This document shows, piece by piece, positions 1 to 31,012 of a stretch of 64,000 nt of DNA. Under the pieces are notes generated by a model. It worked only from the letters and a program-made list of their open reading frames with translations, made no database searches and was not told the origin of the DNA. Source of the DNA: an uncultured virus (IMG/VR IMGVR_UViG_3300042486_001633) (lineage: Duplodnaviria; Heunggongvirae; Uroviricota; Caudoviricetes); the IMG/VR virus record IMGVR_UViG_3300042486_001633; one strand, 5' to 3'. Position 1 is the first letter of the stretch. The number at the start of each line of letters is the position of its first letter. The position numbers and the translations under genes were made by a program.

Positions 1-8
1 CTAACTAA

Positions 9-101
9 ATATAACAAGGTATATGTGAAATACCTCATAAAGTTTCTACTAAATTTTAAAGTTCTGTGGTAAGGTACTTCACATATACCCAACCGTTATA
101 C
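9..101 (+). repeat. attC-like site 0
   Basis: ATATAAC 9-15; arms GGTATATGTGAAATACCT / AGGTACTTCACATATACC (1 mismatch); CAACC-GTTATAC 95-101. Confidence 0.85.
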
Positions 102-153
102 ACAATACTACATCATACGTTCTAATTAAGTTATGTGTAAAAACTTTTTAAAA

Positions 154-312
154 TTAATTACTCAAAGACAAACATTTTTGTAAAACTGATTTCATCAATT
201 TTAATGTTTCATCATCAAATAACGAACCTCTTGAATTAACTTTACTTTCATAATCTAATTTTATTAATTCTTTAATTTCCCTAATTAATTCAGTTCTTTC
301 TTGTTGTGTCAT
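154..312 (-). CDS. Cassette 1 ORF b, 52 aa hypothetical (MTQQERTELIREIKELIKLDY...)
   Basis: Read by hand, below ORF-track cutoff; ATG at 312, TAA at 154-156, directly downstream of 317..502. Confidence 0.65.
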   Translation of the reverse strand: MTQQERTELIREIKELIKLDYESKVNSRGSLFDDETLKLMKSVLQKCLSLSN

Positions 313-316
313 AATT

Positions 317-502
317 TTATTTTTTAAATTTTAATTCTTCTTCAATAATCATCACCATATCATCAAATGAAATTCCCCTTTCATCCGCTCTTTGTTGAAT
401 ATACTCTTCACTAAGATGAATATAATTCGCTTTTGGTTTATCATTTTTACTAATTTCATTTGATGCTTTTAGTAATTTTTCTATAATTTGTTTTTGTTCC
501 AT
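317..502 (-). CDS. Cassette 1 ORF a, hypothetical
   Basis: ORF track; lies between attC0 and attC1. Confidence 0.7.
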   Translation of the reverse strand: MEQKQIIEKLLKASNEISKNDKPKANYIHLSEEYIQQRADERGISFDDMVMIIEEELKFKK

Positions 503-565
503 ATTTTTTTAAAAAGTTTTTATTTGTATTTCAAATCAACACCCTACCTTATTAATCCGTAATGT

Positions 566-619
566 GTATAACAACAAATATATTGCATTAAAACGACAAT
601 ATATTTGCAACCGTTAGGC
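566..619 (+). repeat. attC-like site 1 (short, 54 bp)
   Basis: GTATAAC, arms CAAATATATTG / CAATATATTTG, CAACC-GTTAGGC. Confidence 0.85.
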
Positions 620-629
620 GTAATAAATT

Positions 630-779
630 TTACTGCCATTCGTCAAAGTTTTTATAATAGTTCTCCGCATCTTTCTTTGTCCATTTTATTTTGGTTGCTG
701 CATCAATGTCCTTTTTAATTTGTCTGTCATCTGCTATCATAAACAGTATAACTATTCCAAAAAATATTAGTAGTCCCAT
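630..779 (-). CDS. Cassette 2 ORF, 49 aa with N-terminal hydrophobic segment (MGLLIFFGIVILFMIADD...)
   Basis: Read by hand; fills the cassette between attC1 and attC2. Confidence 0.65.
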   Translation of the reverse strand: MGLLIFFGIVILFMIADDRQIKKDIDAATKIKWTKKDAENYYKNFDEWQ

Positions 780-798
780 AATCGTAAAATTTACATAC

Positions 799-928
799 GC
801 CTAACATTGCATAACCAAAAGCGGGGCGTATATCCGTCATTCAGCTATTGTACTACCAATTTACTTTGTGCCGTTGGTTAGGGTGGTTGCACTTAATCCC
901 CGCCTTCGGTTATACCTGTCCGTTATAA
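799..928 (+). repeat. attC-like site 2
   Basis: GCCTAAC, arms ATAACCAAAAGCGGGG / CCCCGCCTTCGGTTAT, GTTATAA at 922. Confidence 0.85.
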
Positions 929-950
929 GTAATAAAACAAAAATTATGGA

Positions 951-1145
951 TTATTTAATAAACCCACTATGTTTTAAAAACTCACGCATTGCATCAACAA
1001 CTTCTTTGTCGTTTTCAATTAATTTACCTTTCACAAAAATATCACCATTCTCTTTTAATAAGATTATTGCTTCATTTTCACTTTTACCTAAATCAAATCT
1101 AATTGTGTTAGGTTCTAATTCACTTTTTAATTCTAAATTTTCCAT
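951..1145 (-). CDS. Cassette 3 ORF, hypothetical
   Basis: ORF track; fills cassette. Confidence 0.75.
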   Translation of the reverse strand: MENLELKSELEPNTIRFDLGKSENEAIILLKENGDIFVKGKLIENDKEVVDAMREFLKHSGFIK

Positions 1146-1185
1146 AATATTACTTTTTTATTTGTATAATTTTTGTTTTACATAC

Positions 1186-1239
1186 TTATAACAAAGTGTA
1201 AAAAACATTAAAACGATTTTTTACACTCCACCATTAGTG
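1186..1239 (+). repeat. attC-like site 3 (short; core GTT changed to ATT)
   Basis: TTATAAC, arms AGTGTAAAAAA / TTTTTTACACT, same CATTAAAACGA loop as site 1, ends CCACC-ATTAGTG. Confidence 0.8.
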
Positions 1240-1246
1240 GCAAGTG

Positions 1247-1459
1247 CTACATCACCACTTCTTCACGACATTTTGTTCCATCAAAATAACATAAGTTTTT
1301 TTGTGCTTCTTCTAATGTAGAAAAACTATCTGTTGTTGAAACATCATTATTCATCCAAGCATCTACCCACCACCAAAAAAACAAGAAGTGTCGTTGTTGT
1401 ATTGTAAATTCTACTCTACCATCGGGCATTGTTCTTTCAATTATTCTTACTTTTTTCAT
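1247..1459 (-). CDS. Cassette 4 ORF, hypothetical
   Basis: ORF track; fills cassette. Confidence 0.75.
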   Translation of the reverse strand: MKKVRIIERTMPDGRVEFTIQQRHFLFFWWWVDAWMNNDVSTTDSFSTLEEAQKNLCYFDGTKCREEVVM

Positions 1460-1483
1460 TTTCGTTTAATTTACCGCACCAGC

Positions 1484-1586
1484 CACTAACAGCGGTTTGG
1501 TGCTATTATTTTGCCTATAAATTTTATCTAAGGATTGAAATGTCTGCAAGGCAAAATAACAGACACCAAGCCGCATAACGTTAGGC
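1484..1586 (+). repeat. attC-like site 4
   Basis: CACTAAC, arms GCGGTTTGGTG..TTATTTTGCCT / AGGCAAAATAA..CACCAAGCCGC, GTTAGGC at 1580. Confidence 0.85.
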
Positions 1587-1591
1587 ACAAT

Positions 1592-1864
1592 TTAAGACTG
1601 TCCAAATCTACCTTTGTCTATATAAATCAACAAAGTGTCTTGATATGTTCCCATATTAGGTCTTACCATTACTGATAGTCCTCGTTCAATTATTATATTT
1701 ACTATCTCACTTTGCTTTTCAACAGAATAATCAAATTCAGAGTTATGTTCAAAGTAAGGTATTAAATCCCGTTCTTTCCAATAAGCTACTACTATTTTTT
1801 TCATAAGAATAAAAACTGTGCCTAACAACGTATATAAGAGATACGCCAATAAGCGGTTATACAT
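1592..1864 (-). CDS. Cassette 5 ORF, hypothetical (alternative start ATG 1804)
   Basis: ORF track; upstream ATG lies inside the attC5 loop. Confidence 0.7.
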   Translation of the reverse strand: MYNRLLAYLLYTLLGTVFILMKKIVVAYWKERDLIPYFEHNSEFDYSVEKQSEIVNIIIERGLSVMVRPNMGTYQDTLLIYIDKGRFGQS

Positions 1865-1913
1865 TTATTTAAGTTTATCGGTGGCGTACCTCTCATATAC
1901 GCAACCGTTATAG
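1820..1913 (+). repeat. attC-like site 5
   Basis: GCCTAAC, arms CGTATATAAGAGATACGCCA / TGGCGTACCTCTCATATACG, CAACC-GTTATAG. Confidence 0.85.
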
Positions 1914-1919
1914 CCAATG

Positions 1920-2189
1920 CTACTTATTGTACCAAACAACGTGTGTTGCATCTAATTGGGGTGTCGAAAAAACTTCATCACTACTTTTAAGTCCATCCTT
2001 CACCCAATATCCGTTACCATCAAAATTACAGAAGCAACCGTCTTTTACTGCTTGTTTCCATTCTTCAACCGTGTAAATATCATCATCCCAATCTTGGTCA
2101 AGTTTTTTCGTGTATCTATCCGCACTACTGCTAACAGCAAGTATATTCAATTGCTCATTGTCTTGCTTATTTTTATCTTTGTTTTCCAT
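1920..2189 (-). CDS. Cassette 6 ORF, hypothetical; starts inside attC6 loop
   Basis: ORF track. Confidence 0.75.
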   Translation of the reverse strand: MENKDKNKQDNEQLNILAVSSSADRYTKKLDQDWDDDIYTVEEWKQAVKDGCFCNFDGNGYWVKDGLKSSDEVFSTPQLDATHVVWYNK

Positions 2190-2260
2190 ATCTACTTTTA
2201 TTTGTTAATTAGTATTTGTTTTTCAAAATCGCAACTAAATATACTTGCGAAACGTTATAT
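2129..2260 (+). repeat. attC-like site 6
   Basis: TGCTAAC, arms GCAAGTATATT..TTGC / GCAA..AATATACTTGC, GAAAC-GTTATAT. Confidence 0.85.
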
Positions 2261-2261
2261 G

Positions 2262-2456
2262 CTATGCTGTGAAACCTGACTTAGAAAGTGCATCATCAAC
2301 CATGTCAAAAACCTTTTCAGGAATGTGTGCGGTCATGTGTTTTCTAACTTCAATCAAAGTCTTAGCAAGTAATTCAATCGTTTCTTTTTGTGCTTTATCA
2401 CGAACAAAATCGTATTCTGCACTTTCTACTGTTTTTGGGAAAGTTCCTCTTGTCAT
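2262..2456 (-). CDS. Cassette 7 ORF, hypothetical
   Basis: ORF track; fills cassette. Confidence 0.75.
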   Translation of the reverse strand: MTRGTFPKTVESAEYDFVRDKAQKETIELLAKTLIEVRKHMTAHIPEKVFDMVDDALSKSGFTA

Positions 2457-2482
2457 TTTAATTTAGATTTGAGAAGCACAGC

Positions 2483-2614
2483 ATATAACAACACATTGCC
2501 AAAAGTGGCGGTTTAGTGCTAATATCAACTGTTGTGCTTCGGTTTAACATTCGTTTTTATATCAATTTTAGTGCTTCGATTTCGCCACCTTCGGCAATCT
2601 GCAAAACGTTATAA
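2483..2614 (+). repeat. attC-like site 7
   Basis: ATATAAC, arms ATTGCCAAAAGTGGCG / CGCCACCTTCGGCAAT, CAAAAC-GTTATAA. Confidence 0.85.
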
Positions 2615-2625
2615 GCAAATAAAAA

Positions 2626-2865
2626 TTACTCACTTTTCGTTTCATCAACAACTTTTTGGTTTCTAATTTCGCCTTCCAACTCCATCATTTTCATAAAGCA
2701 ATCTCTTAAATGCGAGTGCATCTTACCTAACTCAAATCCGTAAACAACATCATCTTTTTCGGAGTTGCATAAATCTCTAACTAAATCCGCATTTAGTTCA
2801 AACATTCTTTTGTAATGCTCAATTTGTTCTAATTGTTCTTGTGTAATCAAATATTTTCGTTCCAT
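2626..2865 (-). CDS. Cassette 8 ORF, hypothetical
   Basis: ORF track; fills cassette. Confidence 0.75.
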   Translation of the reverse strand: MERKYLITQEQLEQIEHYKRMFELNADLVRDLCNSEKDDVVYGFELGKMHSHLRDCFMKMMELEGEIRNQKVVDETKSE

Positions 2866-2885
2866 AATCCGTAATTTTTATCAGC

Positions 2886-2954
2886 TTATAACAGCGTATA
2901 TACAAGATACGCCTACAAGCATTTGTTTATAATTTAAAGTTTCGTTAAGGCGTA
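2886..2954 (+). repeat. attC-like site 8, truncated right arm
   Basis: Left arm resembles site 5 (TAAC-AGCGTATATACAAGATACGCC) but the right arm stops after AGGCGTA. Confidence 0.7.
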
Positions 2955-3269
2955 ATGCTGACGAAGGAACTCGACAATGGTTTTGCTATCGACTTGTTTA
3001 GCACCAGCCTTTATTGCCTTATCAATCATTGCACCTTTTACATCGTAATGTGGCTGATTTTTATTTCGCTTGTTTTGAAACCAGCATTTGTTTAACCCAA
3101 TACTTTGAGCAAATGAATGAAGATTTGGTATAGTATCAGCCACTAAATGACACCAACCATTTTTCGGAAAATCAATAAGCACTACACCTAACACTGCATA
3201 CCCGACAATGGGGGCTGACGTGCTATTTTCGGCATTTGTGCTATTATCAAAGTTCATTTCTAAATTCAT
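2934..3269 (-). CDS. Cassette 9 ORF, DUF4031-like protein; starts inside attC9 loop
   Basis: WCHLVAD..LHSFA..IGL..WFQ..PHYDV pattern typical of DUF4031. Confidence 0.75.
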   Translation of the reverse strand: MNLEMNFDNSTNAENSTSAPIVGYAVLGVVLIDFPKNGWCHLVADTIPNLHSFAQSIGLNKCWFQNKRNKNQPHYDVKGAMIDKAIKAGAKQVDSKTIVEFLRQHYALTKL

Positions 3270-3316
3270 CGGTTTTGCTTTTAATTCCCCACTGCGGGTA
3301 TGCTTTTACGTTATAG
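3186..3316 (+). repeat. attC-like site 9
   Basis: ACCTAAC, arms GCATACCCG.CAATGGGG / CCCCACTGCGGGTATGC, GTTATAG at 3310. Confidence 0.85.
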
Positions 3317-3337
3317 GTAATAAAATTTACTGCCATC

Positions 3338-3658
3338 CTACTTCCAATCAGCATTTGGTTGATTAAATTCGGGGCGTAAATCGGGGCTTGAATGTGCCAC
3401 ATTACCTTCATATTCTTTTTTCAATTCGTCTTGTTCTTCCGCAAGCACTCTGTAATTATACATTGTTGATGGTCTGCCTTCAATTCCCACCATCGTATAA
3501 TTAAAGTGGTCTTTAGGTAAGTGCTTGCTAAATTCTACCTTGTTAATAGTTGCCAATCCTCCTTCAAAATCATCTTCTCCACGATACACATAGTAAGATG
3601 ATGGCACATAAATTTTGTCCCCGATTTTCGGTTCTTTGATTTTAGTTTTGTCTTTCAT
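3338..3658 (-). CDS. Cassette 10 ORF, hypothetical
   Basis: ORF track; flanked by a perfect 21 bp inverted repeat (3310-3330 / 3664-3684). Confidence 0.8.
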   Translation of the reverse strand: MKDKTKIKEPKIGDKIYVPSSYYVYRGEDDFEGGLATINKVEFSKHLPKDHFNYTMVGIEGRPSTMYNYRVLAEEQDELKKEYEGNVAHSSPDLRPEFNQPNADWK

Positions 3659-3677
3659 AATCCGTAAATTTTATTAC

Positions 3678-3769
3678 CTATAACAAGGGCTATACAAAAC
3701 CCCACATCAACAGCAGTGGTTAATAATTAAGTTCATCTATGTGGGGCTTCGCATAGCCATGAGTTATAA
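3678..3769 (+). repeat. attC-like site 10 (last in array)
   Basis: CTATAAC, arms GGCTATACAAAACCCCACAT / ATGTGGGGCTTCGCATAGCC, GTTATAA at 3763. Confidence 0.8.
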
Positions 3770-3814
3770 CCAGATTTTCTAAAGATATTATACTAAAATT
3801 TTAATAAATAATAA

Positions 3815-3899
3815 AGACCGGCGGACTTAAATGTCCCACATTAGGACCGGTTATAGTTTAGGCTATAAGAAAACGTCGACCTCGCTAGTCGACGTTTTC
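3815..3899 (+). ncRNA. Candidate small structured RNA
   Basis: Late-type motif ATAAATAA at 3804-3811 followed by three consecutive stem-loops and no ORF. Confidence 0.35.
3869..3899. terminator. Probable bidirectional intrinsic terminator
   Basis: GAAAACGTCGAC-ctcgcta-GTCGACGTTTTC perfect 12 bp stem just after the stop of 3905..4642. Confidence 0.75.
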
Positions 3900-3904
3900 G
3901 CTTC

Positions 3905-4642
3905 CTATCGACCTGCGTTAAGTTTGTGTTTTACTGCAAGCTCTCGAATAACTGCAGTTTTTGCATAGCATACCGTTCTCAAGATGAAGCTAGTAATCTT
4001 AGCATATCTACGATCGTCTCTGGATCCCCAGGAAGAATAGCATTCTATTTCATTAAGACAATTTTGTATGGCTGACTTATTTCCCTCTATTGCACTCCTG
4101 TATTCTCGGCTGAACTTCTGAAGACAATACTTGACCATTCGAAAATCTGGTACAACTGATGTGTAGCCATGGCCGTCTTCAGTCCTCTTCCAGTATTCCA
4201 ACTTATAACTAAATCTTCGAGGCTGATACTGTACTTCGACTGGATACGGGTGTCCTTTTTCTTTTGGGACAAAGACTATTTTCCACTTACCGATCGTAAT
4301 CTTTTTGGTTCGGGCTTTAATTGCAGCTTTACCTTCTTGATAATAATGGTTCCAAGAATTAAGCGCATACCTCATGCCGCTCCTACTACATTTCTCAATA
4401 ATAGTGTATGCAACAGCCCACTTAATTTGTTCAGGTTTATTACGTATGAACATATCACCGTCCTCAATCCATACTGCATCGAGATTATTGGCCTCACAAT
4501 ATTCATAAGTACACTGATAGCCTTCCTTGAAGGAAGGTGTGCCGTTTGGGTCGGACACATGTTCACCTAGATCTTCATATCGATCTTTATGGGTCACGAC
4601 CAGTTCGTGACTACAACATGGGCAAAATAGGCTAGTTTTCAT
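3905..4642 (-). CDS. Hypothetical protein with N-terminal Cys cluster
   Basis: 245 aa ORF, CPCC and CxxxxC; own promoter motif upstream. Confidence 0.8.
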   Translation of the reverse strand: MKTSLFCPCCSHELVVTHKDRYEDLGEHVSDPNGTPSFKEGYQCTYEYCEANNLDAVWIEDGDMFIRNKPEQIKWAVAYTIIEKCSRSGMRYALNSWNHYYQEGKAAIKARTKKITIGKWKIVFVPKEKGHPYPVEVQYQPRRFSYKLEYWKRTEDGHGYTSVVPDFRMVKYCLQKFSREYRSAIEGNKSAIQNCLNEIECYSSWGSRDDRRYAKITSFILRTVCYAKTAVIRELAVKHKLNAGR

Positions 4643-4692
4643 ATTTAATATAAATTATCATAACTTAATAATACTACAAGTTTTGATAAAAT

Positions 4693-4720
4693 AAAAAAGG
4701 ATCTCAAAAAGAGATCCTTT
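4693..4720 (-). terminator. Intrinsic terminator
   Basis: AAAGGATCTC-aaaaa-GAGATCCTTT with T-run on the minus strand after 4742..5497. Confidence 0.8.
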
Positions 4721-6971: not shown

Positions 6972-7244
6972 TTACACAAAAAATGTTGATAACCATAAAC
7001 CTAAGACTCCGCCAATTGCTCCGCCAATTGCATAGCCTGCCCATTGATGTAGCGAGTCTTCGCTCTTTGCAATCTTACGAACTACAAAAAAGTTGAACGA
7101 TGCAATAATAAAATCAGTAATAACTGTACCGGGATAATTTACCCATGCAACAAACCGATAGTTAATAACGAGTAACAAATACAAAAGTAATTGTATTGCA
7201 AAAAAGAGGAAAAATTCCTTGAGTTTAATTTTATTGACCTTCAT
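6972..7244 (-). CDS. Small membrane protein
   Basis: Three hydrophobic segments, YAIGGAIG. Confidence 0.75.
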   Translation of the reverse strand: MKVNKIKLKEFFLFFAIQLLLYLLLVINYRFVAWVNYPGTVITDFIIASFNFFVVRKIAKSEDSLHQWAGYAIGGAIGGVLGLWLSTFFV

Positions 7245-7680
7245 ATTGTAACCTTTCTTCGGTGTTTAATAAACCTTTGCCGTATTTTTGAATTCTATTG
7301 TTATATCTTTCCTTTACATAATCGTGTATCCGTAAAGAATTGCCCTCATCGTCAATGCGTACAAATTTAATGTTGGTGTGCACAACGACATCCTGTTTAC
7401 CAGTATACACATTATGCTTGCGAACTTCAAGATAAACAGTAACTGAGGTAGTGCCAAATTCAAAAATATTACCATACACCTTAAGAATATTTCCTATTTT
7501 TACTGGGTGTTTGAAAATAAGTTCGTCAATTTTTAAAGTTACGACGCGTTGTGTATCGCAAATTTGGGCAACATAAGCAGCAGCTGCATCGTCGATAAGT
7601 GATAAGATAGTTCCGCCGAACATATTATCATGTACTCCAATATCGCTCTTCTTACAAATATAGGTTGTGATTAATTCCAT
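7231..7680 (-). CDS. Acyl-CoA thioesterase (hotdog fold)
   Basis: NMFGG.ILSLID.AA, F..PV.IG, G.TS. Confidence 0.85.
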   Translation of the reverse strand: MELITTYICKKSDIGVHDNMFGGTILSLIDDAAAAYVAQICDTQRVVTLKIDELIFKHPVKIGNILKVYGNIFEFGTTSVTVYLEVRKHNVYTGKQDVVVHTNIKFVRIDDEGNSLRIHDYVKERYNNRIQKYGKGLLNTEERLQYEGQ

Positions 7681-8324
7681 TAGCTTTGAATATTCGATTC
7701 GAATGATTTATTTTGTACGATTTGATTAAATGGTAGAACCACTCTGATATTATACTTGCCAGATTGATTATGGTTATAACTCATGTGCTGAATTATTTTT
7801 GCATAAAAGTTATCCATTTCCATGCCAGAGCCATCTGCCATATTAATAATATCATCAAATACTTTGCTCTTTACTGCATATGCGTGTAAACACACAATCT
7901 GATTTCTAAAAAATGGTTCAATTAGTCCGCCAAAATAGAGCACGTCCCAATCATGTAGAATTTCTTGATTTTGAGTAAGCAGTTGATTTGGATCTTGCAA
8001 AAAAGTAATATCGTCCTCTAAAATAAGAACTCTCTCATAACCTCGAGTTTTCGCTAATTCAATACACTTAAGCTGTGCAGCTTTACAGCCTAACTGACCT
8101 AGCCGGTATTTCATATCACCCTTTATAAAATTACGATATAAAGTAGGCGAAGGTAATTCAGTAAGTTGTACTCCTTCTACTCGTTCAAAATTTTTAATTC
8201 CAAACTGGTTAAACTGTGCAAGGATGCGCTCATTGCGGGCAACATCCTTACTCATATTGATATAAAAAATTCTATCGAAATAAGAGTCTAATGTTATTCT
8301 AGGATAGGTAAAATCAGCCATCAC
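7680..8324 (-). CDS. Glycosyltransferase family 25-like
   Basis: FYINM..D..R, GQLGC, LILEDD. Confidence 0.8.
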   Translation of the reverse strand: MMADFTYPRITLDSYFDRIFYINMSKDVARNERILAQFNQFGIKNFERVEGVQLTELPSPTLYRNFIKGDMKYRLGQLGCKAAQLKCIELAKTRGYERVLILEDDITFLQDPNQLLTQNQEILHDWDVLYFGGLIEPFFRNQIVCLHAYAVKSKVFDDIINMADGSGMEMDNFYAKIIQHMSYNHNQSGKYNIRVVLPFNQIVQNKSFESNIQS

Positions 8325-8565: not shown

Positions 8566-9054
8566 TTATTTTTTTACGGTATGTTCTATGTTAACTCGAA
8601 TACAAGTTTGAGGTTGGGCTTCATTCATTAAAAAATTATTAATGTATCCCATAATATTTGCAGAGCCGATTGGGTTTGCGGAATGAGTTACGACGATTGG
8701 GAAACGGACAATTGAATCTTTTTTTTCCGGTCTAGATTTTCCTGGCCATTCCGGATTAGTTGTATAAAATTGACGAACTAACCATCTAGCACTGTCCATG
8801 CCAGTGGATTCAGTAATATTTGCATAGTCCAGTTTATAGTGTGGACTTACATTAGTGAAGTATTCATGCATTGCCGAATCATCCAGATCGTGATCCAGGG
8901 AGATCATTTGAATATTTTCCAAGCCGAGTTCAACGACCTTTGATACTAATTCATCATGTGTTCTAACTACGATCCAGTCCTGATCCACAGGAGTTCTAAC
9001 ATCGTCTAAATATATTCTTTTTTTCATTATTGTAATAATACTATATTGAATCAT
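8566..9054 (-). CDS. Cyclic-phosphate-processing receiver-like domain protein
   Basis: YLDD.R, SLDHDL, TGMD, HSANP.G; true start probably the downstream MKKRIYLDD. Confidence 0.75.
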   Translation of the reverse strand: MIQYSIITIMKKRIYLDDVRTPVDQDWIVVRTHDELVSKVVELGLENIQMISLDHDLDDSAMHEYFTNVSPHYKLDYANITESTGMDSARWLVRQFYTTNPEWPGKSRPEKKDSIVRFPIVVTHSANPIGSANIMGYINNFLMNEAQPQTCIRVNIEHTVKK

Positions 9055-9110: not shown

Positions 9111-9761
9111 ATGCCAGGAAGAATTCTAAACTTTTCAGAGTTTTTTGGTAAATATTCTAGTGATACTGAAAAGAACCTAGACGATTTTACTAATGCTGCA
9201 TCTAACTTCGAAGAAGGATTTGATGACGAAACATACAATCAAAATCAAATTGGACCAAATCGTCCAGTTGCTGGTGGAACTGAGGCAACACCTCCTCAAC
9301 CTGGTGAAACAGGTGCACCAAAATTTACATCACAACCTGATGCTGAAATGAATGCTCCAGAAGAGGAAGAATTAGAAGAGACTCCTGAAGAAGAGGCTAC
9401 TGAGACTCCGACAGAACAAGCTGCTGAAGAGACTGAAGAAGCACCTGAAGCTCCAGAAGAAGAGGAAGGAGATGAAACTCCTGAGCCAGAAATGGGAGCA
9501 AATCCTGAAGAAAGCAAAGAAGATGAAGAAAAAGTAGAAGAATCACGATTAGTAAAAGGATTTCACCAATTTATCTCAGAATCCTACTATGATGCTGATT
9601 ATTTAAGCGACGATTGGAACGAAGAGGAAGAAGATGAAGATTGGAAAGAAGATCGTTTTGATGATGGAGACGATACTGAAATTTACGACAAGCACGGATA
9701 CTGTGAAGACTGTGGAGAACCAAATGATGAGTTTGGATCAACTTGCGGTTGTAACATGTAA
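9111..9761 (+). CDS. Highly acidic putative head/core protein with C-terminal Cys motif
   Basis: Glu/Pro-rich, FSEF and FHQFISE motifs, CEDC..CGC. Confidence 0.75.
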   Translation: MPGRILNFSEFFGKYSSDTEKNLDDFTNAASNFEEGFDDETYNQNQIGPNRPVAGGTEATPPQPGETGAPKFTSQPDAEMNAPEEEELEETPEEEATETPTEQAAEETEEAPEAPEEEEGDETPEPEMGANPEESKEDEEKVEESRLVKGFHQFISESYYDADYLSDDWNEEEEDEDWKEDRFDDGDDTEIYDKHGYCEDCGEPNDEFGSTCGCNM

Positions 9762-9781: not shown

Positions 9782-10375
9782 ATGACTGAAATTATAATTG
9801 CTTTCTTGACAGGTATATTGGGCCCAGTTGCGGTTCTACTAGTCAAGCATATACTAAACACTAGAAAAACTCCAGATCCTATTGCAGAAGCAGTAAACAA
9901 TGCAAATGTGATTAATGACGAGATTGAAAAGATTATGGAGGAGTTTACTCCAGACAGAGTATGGATTGCACAATTCCATAATGGCGGTCATTATTATCCA
10001 ACTGGTAAATCTATCCAAAAATTCAGCATCTTTTTTGAACAAGTAAAGCACGCTAAGGATACTACTCGCGATAATTTTCAAAATATCCCAGTAAACCTAT
10101 TTAGTAAATCATTTAGCCGAGTTTTAACTCATGATTACTTGGCTATCCCCGATTTTAAAGACGAGACAATTGCTACATATGGCTTAAAATATATTGCAGA
10201 AGAAAATGGAACTAAGAGTTCCTACATATTTGCAATCAGAACAGTTGAAAATCGACTAATTGGATTACTTGGAATTGACTATACTACTAGAAAAAAGACG
10301 CTAGACTCTGAAGATATTATTGAGCTACGTTTAGAAGCAACTAAACTTGGCGGAGTCCTAATGAGTCAATTATAA
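9782..10375 (+). CDS. Putative holin-like protein (N-terminal TM plus GAF-like domain)
   Basis: One TM then RVWIAQFHNG...IGLLGIDY; architecture like T4 holin T. Confidence 0.55.
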   Translation: MTEIIIAFLTGILGPVAVLLVKHILNTRKTPDPIAEAVNNANVINDEIEKIMEEFTPDRVWIAQFHNGGHYYPTGKSIQKFSIFFEQVKHAKDTTRDNFQNIPVNLFSKSFSRVLTHDYLAIPDFKDETIATYGLKYIAEENGTKSSYIFAIRTVENRLIGLLGIDYTTRKKTLDSEDIIELRLEATKLGGVLMSQL

Positions 10376-10524
10376 TGAAAAAGCTAGTAGAAAACTTCCT
10401 TGAATTTATTCAAACCGCTAAGGTTGCACAGGAACCTGAATCCTTCAGAATATACAGTGCAAATCCTAGAAAGAAATCTCGTAAATTAGCGATTGCTCGA
10501 TACGCAAAGAAGTGTAAAGGCTAG
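10375..10524 (+). CDS. Small basic protein, 49 aa (MKKLVENFLEFIQ...)
   Basis: Read by hand; TAATG coupling with the upstream gene. Confidence 0.6.
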   Translation: MKKLVENFLEFIQTAKVAQEPESFRIYSANPRKKSRKLAIARYAKKCKG

Positions 10525-10796
10525 TCCTCATCCTCGTCATCATCATACTGATCATCAAAATCGTCATTTATGAACTCTGGACTAGATATTGTACGAATAC
10601 CAGCGTCTTCCCAGTTAAGTAAGACATCATCTAATTCATCAGTAACCATCGTTAGAATCTGTATATTTTCCCTAACTGTGCCCTCGTTATAGGTCAGTAT
10701 TTTTACCTTGATTGCATCAAGTTTCTTCAATATTGTAGTTTCAAGTTCCTTTCGAACTGCCTGATACTTTTCGATTTGAGATTTATCCATTTCCAT
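10521..10796 (-). CDS. Hypothetical protein, acidic tail
   Basis: ORF track; AAAC-N18-TATAAT upstream. Confidence 0.75.
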   Translation of the reverse strand: MEMDKSQIEKYQAVRKELETTILKKLDAIKVKILTYNEGTVRENIQILTMVTDELDDVLLNWEDAGIRTISSPEFINDDFDDQYDDDEDED

Positions 10797-10883
10797 ATAT
10801 TACTTATTATATTACACAATCTGCGATTGGTTTCTAAATAAATAAACTAAAGAGTTTCTAACTTATTAAAATAACGAACAAGA

Positions 10884-29042: not shown

Positions 29043-29237
29043 GTGAAACATGAAAAACCAGAAAGTTGGAAAAACTTAGAAAACTACAGAAAGGGTAAAG
29101 AACAGTTAAAAAATGCAATAGTTCAACATCCAGACGACGAACCCAAGACTTCAATCTACGATTATGTCAAAAAGAACGTTAATCGAAAGCTATGGGTGAT
29201 ACCATTTGACAAATTTAAAAGAAAAGGCGGTAAATAA
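29043..29237 (+). CDS. Small basic protein
   Basis: ORF track (GTG start). Confidence 0.6.
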   Translation: MKHEKPESWKNLENYRKGKEQLKNAIVQHPDDEPKTSIYDYVKKNVNRKLWVIPFDKFKRKGGK

Positions 29238-29252
29238 CTGCCTTTCTTTTTT
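29223..29252 (+). terminator. Probable terminator
   Basis: AAAGGCGGT-aaata-ACTGCCTTT followed by T-run. Confidence 0.6.
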
Positions 29253-29284
29253 ATGATAAATAACTAAAATATAGCGTATACACA

Positions 29285-31012
29285 ATGACGTTTTCCAAAT
29301 ACTTATTCACACTTTTAAACAAAGATAGACTTATAGTTGAAAGCTCAGGTGCTCCAAGTAGCCCAGTAATAGATGTTGACTCGATCAAAAATCAAATTGA
29401 GTCCGGCGTCGGTGGTGATATTACGCAAAAGGATGCGGTTACTGCATCTTTTGAGGCCCTTGAGAAGGCATTTGACTCAATTCCATTAGATTATTTAGAA
29501 AAAGCTGAAAATCCTGGGCTAGAAGACATTTTTACTGAACTTGCTAAGTCAGATAAGCTTGATTTTCTAGAAAAATATGCCCAAAATGAGAAAAATGCGA
29601 TCGAGGGAGTTGCAAAATCGATGGAAACCATTGATAAGGAACGTGATGAAGTAAAATTCATAAATTATCTTCGTGACTATTCTAATATTTCAGAAAGATT
29701 ACTTAAAATTTACAGACTTTGCGCTGGCCAGATCGGTTTATCGCTAACTGAGGCAGTAAATTTAGAGCCTGAAGTAAAGAGTAAAGTAGAACGTATTATC
29801 AAATTAAGTAAAGAGGGTGCAGCTAGTACCTGGAAGAAGATCTTAGATGCTGAAGCTAAAAATATTGATTCTTTACCAGAAACTCCAGAAGGAGCACAAA
29901 AGTTTTATGAGTATAAAGACTTATTAGAACTACTTGGACTTACTCAATTCCTAAAGGATGCACTTGCAGCAAAAGAAAAGAAGGTAGCTGCAAAAGAAAA
30001 GCCAGAAAGCGTAAGCACCAAACGAAAAAAGAGAATTATTGATAATCGTCTTATTAAAGGTATTCAGTATGCTGAACTACCAGTAATTTCAAATGATATT
30101 GCGGAAGTTCCGGGTGATCTTTTCAAAATGTTTAAAGCTCTAGAGAAACAAAATTCTGCATGGATGAACTCTTCACTAAGTAAGTATGTGTTTGCGGCCG
30201 GTGATTCAGCTAGAGCAAAGGAATTTGATACTACTGCTCGACAAACGGAAAGCGTTAAAGAAGAAGACCAACTTACTTATTTAATGGCATGCCGTTCATG
30301 GTCACTAAGCTATATTAAAGGTTTAGTTGATGGAGATCTTACTGAAAAGGAAGAGTCAAACTACGTAACTAAACTTGAAAATGTTTCTTCTGAAAAAGAA
30401 AGAGAAATTAAAAATTATTATCTATCTAGAGATTTTAATCTTGGTAACTTCGGTGGAGTTCAACTTACACCAGAAATTAGATTACCTCTATATACTAGAG
30501 TAAAATTACCAGTAACTGATGAAGACCGTAAAAAAGAAAGCCCACTAAGAAATATATTAAAAGGGCTTGGTCAAATTGTGACTGGTTTATTTGGTGCAAT
30601 TCCAGATAAAGGAAATGAAGCAGTTGCAAAAATGGCAAGAAACAGAAACCTTGCAATATTTAATGGACTCAATGCGATCGTTAAAGGAACAGTTACTGCA
30701 GTCGGTGGAAAACAGGCAGGTCGTGATTATTCTGAAAAAGTAGCTAAACTTGTTCCTGGTAAAGCAGCAGTTAAGGAGGATATGCTTTCGCTAGGCGATG
30801 CACCAGGAGTAGTTGTAGTAAATCCGGAATCTCCAGGTCAAGTAATGCAAACACCAGACTCTCTACCTGGTAATAATATGGATATTTTTTCTCTAGCTGG
30901 ACCGGGTAAAAAAATTACCTCGACTAAGAAAAGTAAAAAGAAGAGCAAGAAAAAAGAGGCTAAAGTTAATCATATAGTTTCTAGCTTTTCAGACTTTATG
31001 CAGCGCAAGTAA
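29285..31012 (+). CDS. Large hypothetical virion-associated protein
   Basis: 575 aa, late motif upstream, C-terminal basic patch and SFSDF motif. Confidence 0.75.
   Translation: MTFSKYLFTLLNKDRLIVESSGAPSSPVIDVDSIKNQIESGVGGDITQKDAVTASFEALEKAFDSIPLDYLEKAENPGLEDIFTELAKSDKLDFLEKYAQNEKNAIEGVAKSMETIDKERDEVKFINYLRDYSNISERLLKIYRLCAGQIGLSLTEAVNLEPEVKSKVERIIKLSKEGAASTWKKILDAEAKNIDSLPETPEGAQKFYEYKDLLELLGLTQFLKDALAAKEKKVAAKEKPESVSTKRKKRIIDNRLIKGIQYAELPVISNDIAEVPGDLFKMFKALEKQNSAWMNSSLSKYVFAAGDSARAKEFDTTARQTESVKEEDQLTYLMACRSWSLSYIKGLVDGDLTEKEESNYVTKLENVSSEKEREIKNYYLSRDFNLGNFGGVQLTPEIRLPLYTRVKLPVTDEDRKKESPLRNILKGLGQIVTGLFGAIPDKGNEAVAKMARNRNLAIFNGLNAIVKGTVTAVGGKQAGRDYSEKVAKLVPGKAAVKEDMLSLGDAPGVVVVNPESPGQVMQTPDSLPGNNMDIFSLAGPGKKITSTKKSKKKSKKKEAKVNHIVSSFSDFMQRK

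Follow-up and report, generated by a model that had tools for sequence, protein, structure and literature searches.

Integrons are defined by the integrase IntI, and a promoter on the attI side favours their newest cassette. In their classical form the cassette gene comes first and the attC site lies at the 3' end of the cassette (available sections of PMC8876359), while the hairpin formed by the attC bottom strand carries its extrahelical bases on the arm opposite the AAC (available sections of PMC5027507). Phages entered this picture with Qi et al. 2023 (PMC9892861), who described clusters of attC sites lacking integron-integrases (CALINs) and attC arrays in virulent phages, with methyltransferase cargo and 2-4 sites per phage; the sites were found with classical attC tools, no linked recombinase of the kind treated below is described, and 'divergent directions' are mentioned but no inverted cassette design. 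Here we analyse a stretch of 64,000 nt (the window) from an uncultured virus of the Caudoviricetes (IMG/VR record IMGVR_UViG_3300042486_001633), at one end of which small open reading frames (ORFs) alternate with hairpin sites. With a probability of about 0.8, positions 1-3770 form the outer third of a ~27-cassette array on a phage-borne, integron-like recombination platform, run by a shorter, related recombinase family. Its polarity, in which the window plus strand is the equivalent of the attC top strand and the cassette ORFs lie antisense to it, is supported by crossover mapping, by the position of junction and recombinase, by the better folding of the minus strand and by the reversed orientation of bacterial relatives.

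The array resides in a giant freshwater phage. The window encodes a portal protein, a T4-type major head protein, primase, polymerase, helicases and topoisomerase II, as in a very large phage, and the closest public relatives of its head protein (33-37% identity) are from uncultured huge phages and Lak phages. Twenty-two lake or freshwater DNA sequencing runs, dated 2016-2025, contain half or more of the words sampled from the array, and no RNA run is listed among those containing such words.

Eleven ORFs of 49-111 aa, all on the minus strand, occupy window 154-3658, and 11 hairpin sites, 9 intact and 2 decayed, are found in window 1-3770. In the following we refer to the ORF-sense strand, i.e. 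the window minus strand, as S, and to the sites as E0-E10. On the plus strand the sites start with TAACA and end with (C/A)xxAC-GTTA, a spacer of 4-6 nt preceding the GTTA. Within 1-3800 a site scanner called 9 sites, all of them on the minus strand, and it called 1 in the remaining 60.2 kb, against a mean of 0.37 (maximum 3) in 100 dinucleotide shuffles, which bears out the claim of an earlier note on this sequence that 11 minus-strand ORFs lie antisense to plus-strand TAACA...GTTA hairpins. When 64 phage sites of the 86-90-nt class were used to build a covariance model, this likewise gave 9 matches in the window (E <= 0.01), all on the minus strand and all within 9-3769, with a single much weaker plus-strand echo covering E0. 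TAAC and GTTA are invariant in the 64 aligned sites, compensatory changes occur in 18 of the 19 stem pairs, and site lengths fall into discrete classes (48, 86-90 and 124-129 nt). From the recombinase-proximal side outwards, the sites and cassette ORFs of the window are:

12-98, minus strand: hairpin E0, 87 nt; covariance model 91.2 bits on the minus strand, 30.6 bits on the plus strand
317..502 (61 aa) and 154..312 (52 aa), minus strand: ORF pair of one cassette, without family match
569-616, minus strand: hairpin E1, 48-nt class; its loop is that of the Polaribacter phage site P12002L_attC1
630..779, minus strand: cassette ORF of 49 aa, found along with E2 at 100% identity in viral locus L053
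802-925, minus strand: hairpin E2, 124 nt, belonging to the cassette of ORF 630..779; scanner and covariance model
951..1145, minus strand: cassette ORF, 64 aa, function unknown; phrog_16927
1189-1236, minus strand: hairpin E3 with mutated core (ATTA end on the plus strand, TAAT on the ORF strand); 31.9 bits
1247..1459, minus strand: cassette ORF, 70 aa, without family
1487-1583, minus strand: hairpin E4; scanner and covariance model
1592..1864, minus strand: cassette ORF, 90 aa as listed, 70 aa (1592..1804) from the second ATG
1823-1910, minus strand: hairpin E5, 88 nt; 82.1 bits
1920..2189, minus strand: cassette ORF, 89 aa, phrog_14149; ATG in the E6 loop, reading through the E6 3' arm
2132-2257, minus strand: hairpin E6, 126-nt class, start codon in the loop; scanner and covariance model
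2262..2456, minus strand: cassette ORF, 64 aa, without family
2486-2611, minus strand: hairpin E7, 126-nt class, non-coding loop with repeated GAAGCAC motifs; scanner and covariance model
2626..2865, minus strand: cassette ORF, 79 aa, without family
2889-2947, minus strand: decayed site E8, cores and one arm retained, other arm gone; sequence and folding
2934..3269, minus strand: cassette ORF with DUF4031 domain; profile match
3189-3313, minus strand: hairpin E9, 125 nt; scanner, no covariance-model match at E <= 0.01
3338..3658, minus strand: cassette ORF, 106 aa, without family; first array gene in the direction of transcription
3681-3766, minus strand: hairpin E10, outermost site at the recombinase-distal end of the array; scanner and covariance model

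Site E3 is probably a dead crossover site that fuses two cassettes, and a GTG start just outside E9 appears likely for ORF 2934..3269, since its DUF4031 domain starts near residue 30.

Read on S, a site consists of TAAC-G, a bulge of 3-4 nt, a stem, a loop, the returning stem and T-GTTA. S is the better-folding strand in 9 of the 11 window sites (DNA parameters) and in 326 of 348 distinct sites. Among the 348 sites, G.T pairs carry the G on the 5' arm in 802 cases versus 79 (one constant pair of each site being included in these figures), and the complement of S has A.C mismatches where S has G.T pairs. In the 64-site alignment, three wobble columns (45/100, 32/113 and 40/105) are G.T with G on the 5' arm in 59, 44 and 34 sites, respectively. 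Retained G.T positions in the stem suggest wobble pairs selected to weaken the hairpin of the complementary strand. Folding both strands had been put forward earlier as the way to fix the recombinogenic strand; the minus strand indeed folds better, but the AAC arm is the one that bears the unpaired bases, contrary to a classical attC.

Within the window no recombinase was found near the array, and the nearest viral record (G001), a 34-kb fragment, ends inside the array, likewise without a recombinase. A metagenome contig (L100), however, is 100% identical to window 1-4001 and extends leftwards. Its array reaches position 9582 and comprises ~27 sites (scanner and covariance model combined); the end of the array is formed by the last ORF, a TAAC + TATTATATAT junction and, ~40 nt later, the start of a recombinase gene on the strand of the cassette ORFs (266 aa; listed ORF 10076..10876, tblastn 10067-10873), ~6 kb past the window's left edge. 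The earlier note had asked for attI and intI to be located relative to the array; what the array ends with is an attI-like junction and an Xer-like recombinase. The geometry, a junction and a sense recombinase gene on S, would be that of attI and intI on the classical bottom strand, as we derive it ourselves from the available sections of PMC5027507.

The recombinase has the integrase catalytic and N-terminal domains and resembles XerA and XerD, and its closest structure match is archaeal XerA (4A8E, 2e-31). Aligned with VchIntIA (2A3V), its residues 17-180 correspond to 17-183 and 207-265 to 258-316, leaving 26 residues opposite 74; it is without the IntI-specific segment, with ~48 residues fewer at its place. 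It scores 145.4 bits against the integron integrase model TIGR02249 (cut-off 265) and 174 bits against the best curated model, an XerA-like one (cut-off 220), and stays below every curated cut-off. The enzyme is tied to arrays of hairpin sites, which sets it apart from Xer/dif dimer resolution, a dif-type site not having been searched for. Directly after the recombinase gene, L100 10895-12038 holds two tandem genes for HAD-domain 'Swiss Army Knife' RNA-repair proteins (PF18143, E 3e-21 and 4e-24).

The family of short Xer-like recombinases is abundant in freshwater viral and Bacteroidota sequence, with 7,406 relatives at E <= 1e-20 among 8,000 candidates scored. Of 96 confirmed loci from viral contigs, 80 were retained. 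Sites lie on the recombinase strand in 65 of these 80, almost all upstream of the recombinase gene, and opposite-strand sites amount to one stray each in only 9 loci; of the 15 site-free loci, 9 have no upstream DNA and 6 carry the most distant or partial recombinase relatives. All 43 loci inspected closely (duplicates and truncated loci left out) have 2-16 upstream sites. A junction of the form TAAC + TA-nn-(A/T)-TAT-(A/G)-T is kept in 33 loci, 36-52 nt upstream of the start codon, in an alignment with one mis-anchored row, and a second recombinase branch (41% identical) terminates the 18-site array of L015 in the same manner. In two locus pairs, L059/L060 and L033/L034, the recombinase side is common from the junction TAAC on (100% and 96%) and the adjoining cassettes differ. 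Sites also occur in cultured phages: E4-like sites were found in 37 records of cultured Flavobacterium siphophages, and sites without any recombinase relative are present in Polaribacter phage P12002L as well as in the first 8.6 kb of Flavobacterium phage snusmum6-1.

A further motif, CGAAGCAC followed after 4 nt by GTAG-YATTG, recurs in the loops of long sites, at certain cassette 3' ends immediately before TAAC and immediately before the recombinase junction; it is present in the E7 loop (window 2486-2611), at L100 9466-9490 and 9995-10030, and at the junctions of L028, L055, L063 and L065. It may be a second protein-binding element.

The position of the crossover bears on which hairpin belongs to which gene. 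In a conventional layout, S would be the top strand of an ordinary attC and each ORF would own the hairpin behind it. In 36 of 170 distinct cassettes the ORF stops at the TAA within the next TAAC, as is often so in classical ones, and plus-strand loops and spacers are somewhat purine-enriched (by-eye count, E1 and E3), both in favour of such a layout. So are the extra unpaired bases on the AAC arm of S, the mark of a classical top strand (available sections of PMC5027507). The shared cassettes, however, include the upstream hairpin and stop at the next TAAC. Indeed, E2 and ORF 630..779 are 100% identical with L053 from E2's TAAC to the TAAC of the next site, with unrelated neighbours, and L059 has the same E2 site and a protein identical to the product of this ORF, again among different neighbours. 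Generally, the left ends of high-identity blocks fall within 12 nt of the 5' TAAC in 14 of 27 cases versus 2 of 27 for the 3' GTTA, the right ends at TAAC in 9 and at GTTA in 5 of 28, and five of the six junctions printed in full are at TAAC. Similarly, it is the upstream site that co-varies with the ORF: among 76 homologous cassette-ORF pairs, the conserved site is the upstream one only in 8, the downstream one only in 1, both in 57 and neither in 4, and where conservation differs by a margin of at least 0.2 the upstream site is ahead in 13 pairs and the downstream site in 1. Moreover, 60 of the 170 cassettes, mostly those with 100-135-nt sites, have their ATG inside the upstream hairpin and would be split between two cassettes in the conventional layout, whereas an ORF ends deeper in the next site in only 2; and at its junction side the array ends with an ORF, not with a hairpin.

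Because of the shared cassettes, the co-inheritance and the overlap with the gene, we locate the crossover in the 5' TAAC of S and assign every hairpin to the following ORF. Exchange between phage genomes involves whole cassettes, delimited by the 5' TAAC on S, and each hairpin belongs with its downstream ORF, so that a phage cassette is a hairpin and then a gene. A strict search for cassette-sized indels in 140 near-identical locus pairs gave one candidate, outside the arrays. With the bacterial relatives, which have the same site architecture and carry their ORFs on the other strand (see below), and with the HattCI assignment by Qi et al. of the gene-sense strand of P12002L_attC1 as bottom strand (PMC9892861), the conventional layout becomes very unlikely.

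The same data bear on the possibility that the hairpins are miniature elements, akin to miniature inverted-repeat transposable elements (MITEs) or repetitive extragenic palindromes (REPs), spread into pre-existing gaps between genes by a single-strand transposase or a homing endonuclease. In favour of this, the 87-nt site E0 is also present in 15 further viral contigs, where it is 93-99% identical and its flanks are unrelated; the sites fall into discrete length classes; and small phages have arrays without a recombinase within reach. Yet the sites are strictly co-oriented, the unit that moves is the hairpin with its gene and not the hairpin alone, the printed junctions show no target duplications, and no transposase was found in the window's array or the array flanks, which renders this origin very unlikely.

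In many of the 124-130-nt sites the loop provides an ATG, and the hairpin's 3' arm then codes for a recurrent N-terminal peptide whose last residues are, for example, QLNIGAV or NLNISDV. This loop-encoded leader is fused to unrelated proteins; in ORF 1920..2189 the PHROG profile begins at residue 33, past the leader. Examples are window 2132-2257 with ORF 1920..2189, and L100 6582-6877, 7086-7384 and 8015-8296. At L100 7670-7903, two successive hairpin sites stand ~20 nt apart with no ORF between them, which looks like an empty cassette; the loop of the first bears GGTTCGA motifs reminiscent of a T-arm.

Many genomes of Flavobacterium and further Bacteroidota, among them those of isolates, encode relatives of the recombinase at 41-51% identity, which are likewise without the IntI segment; a 2-kb contig with 74% identity, probably phage DNA, was set aside. 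The bacterial order is recombinase, a junction ending in TA-GTTA on the gene strand, and then gene-then-hairpin cassettes, and the junction core is related to that of the phages (TAAC + TA, two variable bases, TATA). On S of the phages, by comparison, a site-free stretch after the upstream gene is followed by hairpin-then-gene cassettes, the junction and the recombinase. The sites themselves have the same architecture, bulge included, and both scanner and covariance model place S opposite the genes: in L139, L171, L126, L121 and L130 the sites called by the phage-derived model face the ORFs from the other strand, and in phages they share the strand of the ORFs. Counted over distinct intervals between neighbouring sites, the ORF lies on S in 196 phage intervals (window included), antisense in 0 and unclear in 83, versus antisense in 21, on S in 5 and unclear in 14 bacterial ones. 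The phage array is thus inverted relative to its own bacterial kin. With a short Xer-like recombinase, a TAAC + TA-nn-TATA junction and hairpins with an AAC-arm bulge, it belongs to the same Xer-type integron-like platform. A first reading, which took S for the top strand by the rule of the extrahelical bases, was dropped after the crossover mapping and the study of these relatives.

As S folds better in 40 of 42 bacterial sites (strand-blind detection; 17 sites with unclear motif left out), where it is antisense to the genes, the fold bias is a property of the DNA site and not of the mRNA. This speaks directly to the view that the hairpins act in RNA, as terminators, processing sites or stabilisers, and that the recombinase is unrelated to them, being for example an enzyme of lysogeny or dimer resolution. 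On the mRNA strand the hairpins do fold, at -14 to -42 kcal/mol (RNA parameters, G.U allowed), start codons lie in their loops, and attC sites are thought to be weak terminators (available sections of PMC8876359 and PMC9892861). A role in RNA, however, does not account for the invariant TAAC and GTTA cores, the breaks of inter-genome homology at the TAAC core, the one-sided, single-strand linkage of sites to the recombinase in 65 of 80 loci, or the conserved half-site beside the recombinase gene, and no terminators were called by a scan of 1-4700. As the sole explanation it is therefore very unlikely, whereas a hairpin role in RNA additional to recombination may exist.

As for the expression of the array, two features lie beyond the outermost site:

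3787..3792, minus strand: TATAAT hexamer; present, no promoter support
3869..3899, after the stop of ORF 3905..4642: perfect 12-bp inverted repeat; a T-rich run follows on the minus strand; no call by the terminator scan

The hexamer, described earlier as pointing into the array, is present at 3787-3792 but carries no promoter weight: sigma-70-type matches in 1-4700 are at chance (23 versus 20.6 +/- 4.1 expected), and it is not listed among them. Hosts of the Bacteroidota use another promoter consensus, and TATAAT is wrong for such a host. A -7 box of the host type (TAnnTTTG) precedes only 23 of 220 cassette ORFs at 15-70 nt, and a Shine-Dalgarno-like motif only 1 of 220, the region before the ATG being A-rich. 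The window array comes after a block of minus-strand genes and the 12-bp hairpin at 3869-3899, which, because of the T-rich run that follows on the minus strand, may end the upstream transcript before the array. No conserved motif was seen upstream of the first detected array site, a comparison in which the scanner misses some sites and the true array ends are not reliably identified.

These results are compatible with the following course of events. The recombinase would fold S of a site and cut in AAC, as integron integrases do on the attC bottom strand, and would insert free cassettes at the junction beside its own gene. Since phage ORFs lie on S and are read towards the junction, a new cassette would become the last gene of a co-directional string, adjoining the recombinase gene. 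Because the genes are read towards the attI-like end, transcription cannot start beside the insertion site and run outwards; it would instead enter the array from the far end or start inside cassettes. Many long sites would supply the start codon and the first 15-20 codons of an ORF in loop and 3' arm, and the cargo would consist of phage accessory genes, some with anti-restriction annotations. Tentatively, and as a possibility that we ourselves regard with some doubt, the system may be an integron-like one rebuilt such that the coding strand is also the folding and recombining strand, the hairpin doubling as translation start region. A third of the cassettes would then have their start codon and a short N-terminal leader inside the hairpin, in its loop and 3' arm; array transcription could expose the non-template S, coupling expression to cassette excision and capture, and could read through into the recombinase gene; and new cassettes would enter at the promoter-distal end, which reverses the rule of bacterial integrons that the newest cassette is the strongest.

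Most cassette ORFs of the window match no family, the one with a DUF4031 domain aside, and Rfam and tRNA scans of the window found nothing. The cassette at window 154-502 holds two ORFs separated by a 4-nt gap, a layout that resembles a toxin-antitoxin or other two-gene module. Beyond the window, one array ORF encodes a Lar-like restriction alleviation protein, and DNA methyltransferase genes occur in arrays of cultured Flavobacterium and Polaribacter phages, lying on the S strand in the one Flavobacterium siphophage array inspected. At L100 7918-8003, ~3.9 kb left of the window, Rfam finds a tRNA between two sites on the ORF strand (40.7 bits, gathering 29), and ARAGORN called no tRNA in L100; the segment would be a cassette with a tRNA gene as cargo. 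Elsewhere in the window, the ORF at 8566-9054 has a cyclic-phosphate-processing receiver domain (cREC_REC, PF20274, E 3e-14) and adjoins genes for a GT25-family glycosyltransferase and a 4HBT thioesterase at 7231-8324.

A number of observations weigh against the platform and polarity proposed here. The first internal loop of the sites is a bulge on the AAC arm in 237 of 348 cases (4 nt in 124, 3 nt in 113), and by the extrahelical-base rule in the available sections of PMC5027507 S would be the top strand, which is the chief counter-argument. In the scanner, two bases decide the orientation of a site and an energy cut-off is applied to S, so that the fold statistics obtained for the 348 sites are biased. 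The frequent position of ORF stops in the TAAC box is like that of classical cassettes, and the 57 of 76 cassette pairs that keep both flanks are uninformative. Insertion at the junction is supported by two locus pairs, L059/L060 and L033/L034, and the arrays of L021 and L022 differ at the far end instead. Orientation is unclear in 83 of 279 phage intervals, 5 bacterial intervals have the phage-like orientation, and crossover positions in the bacterial arrays were inferred from junction sequences and not mapped. Finally, P12002L_attC1, the only family member with a published test, was not recombined by IntI1 (PMC9892861), which fits a different enzyme and proves nothing. Set against crossovers, junction, folding and bacterial kin, these points leave the polarity of the inverted integron suggested by the earlier note standing, but not its identity as a classical integron, as the IntI segment is absent and the bulge lies on the AAC arm.

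Standard integron finders, which are keyed on IntI and classical attC sites, would miss or mis-orient phage arrays of this kind. As banks of small phage accessory genes, the arrays are a source of candidate counter-defence genes. Reversal of the gene relative to the hairpin changes how cassette genes can be switched on, and the paired bacterial and phage versions offer a natural experiment on the importance of cassette orientation. A literature search that did not cover subscription journals found no paper that treats Xer-type cassette arrays of phages or inverted phage cassettes, nor one on Xer-type integron-like arrays of Bacteroidota chromosomes; new here is the test of polarity by crossover mapping and by the contrast between phage and bacterial arrays.

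Several described systems are close to this one, the phage arrays of Qi et al. among them. A CALIN has two or more attC sites and no integron integrase nearby; within the window no recombinase lies close to the array, and in L100 a tyrosine recombinase that is not IntI stands ~6 kb on. The site P12002L_attC1 of Qi et al. has the loop and ends of E1 and E3. It is flanked by two methyltransferase genes, is on the gene-sense strand, was predicted by HattCI only and was the sole one of six sites without IntI1 recombinants (PMC9892861). In the P12002L genome (L104), 29215-29260 is a site of the present family whose gene-sense strand is S, and 30005-30060, after the next gene, is a classical-type attC in conventional orientation that recombined with IntI1 (PMC9892861). 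No Flavobacterium phage appears in the text or supplement of their 10,705-genome screen (PMC9892861).

The comparison with other systems turns on geometry and enzyme. In the 'inverted integrase' integrons known for example from Treponema, integrase and cassettes point in the same direction, with the integrase upstream and the cassettes read away from attI; the phage arrays are equally co-directional, but their recombinase is downstream and the cassettes are read towards the junction. CTX phage DNA is acted upon by XerC and XerD in folded, single-stranded form, at one integration site and with host enzymes. An Xer-family enzyme and a one-strand hairpin (here inferred) are shared with that system, from which the phage platform differs by its cassette array and dedicated phage enzyme. 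The Xer-type arrays of Bacteroidota have the same site architecture, a related junction core and recombinases 41-51% identical, yet of their 26 clear intervals 21 have genes antisense to the folding strand, as opposed to 196 of 196 clear phage intervals with genes on it.

With classical integrons, finally, the phage system has several features in common. A tyrosine recombinase gene lies next to the primary junction, and the cassettes, which are small and mostly contain a single ORF, form an array that runs in one direction. The sites are imperfect hairpins (48-130 nt) whose inverse cores are of the RYYYAAC / GTTRRRY kind, the crossover is within the AAC of the 5' core of the strand that folds better, and the recombinase gene is sense on the folding strand, as intI is on the bottom strand. 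The phage system differs in a recombinase of 266 aa that lacks ~48 residues at the place of the IntI segment and scores below the integron-integrase cut-off, in unpaired bases that form a 3-4-nt bulge beside the core on the AAC arm, and in genes that lie on the recombined strand, each preceded by its hairpin and read towards the junction, the mirror image of the classical gene-first cassette. Because the recombinase is without the IntI-specific segment and the unpaired bases are on the AAC arm, the phage system is integron-like and not a classical integron.

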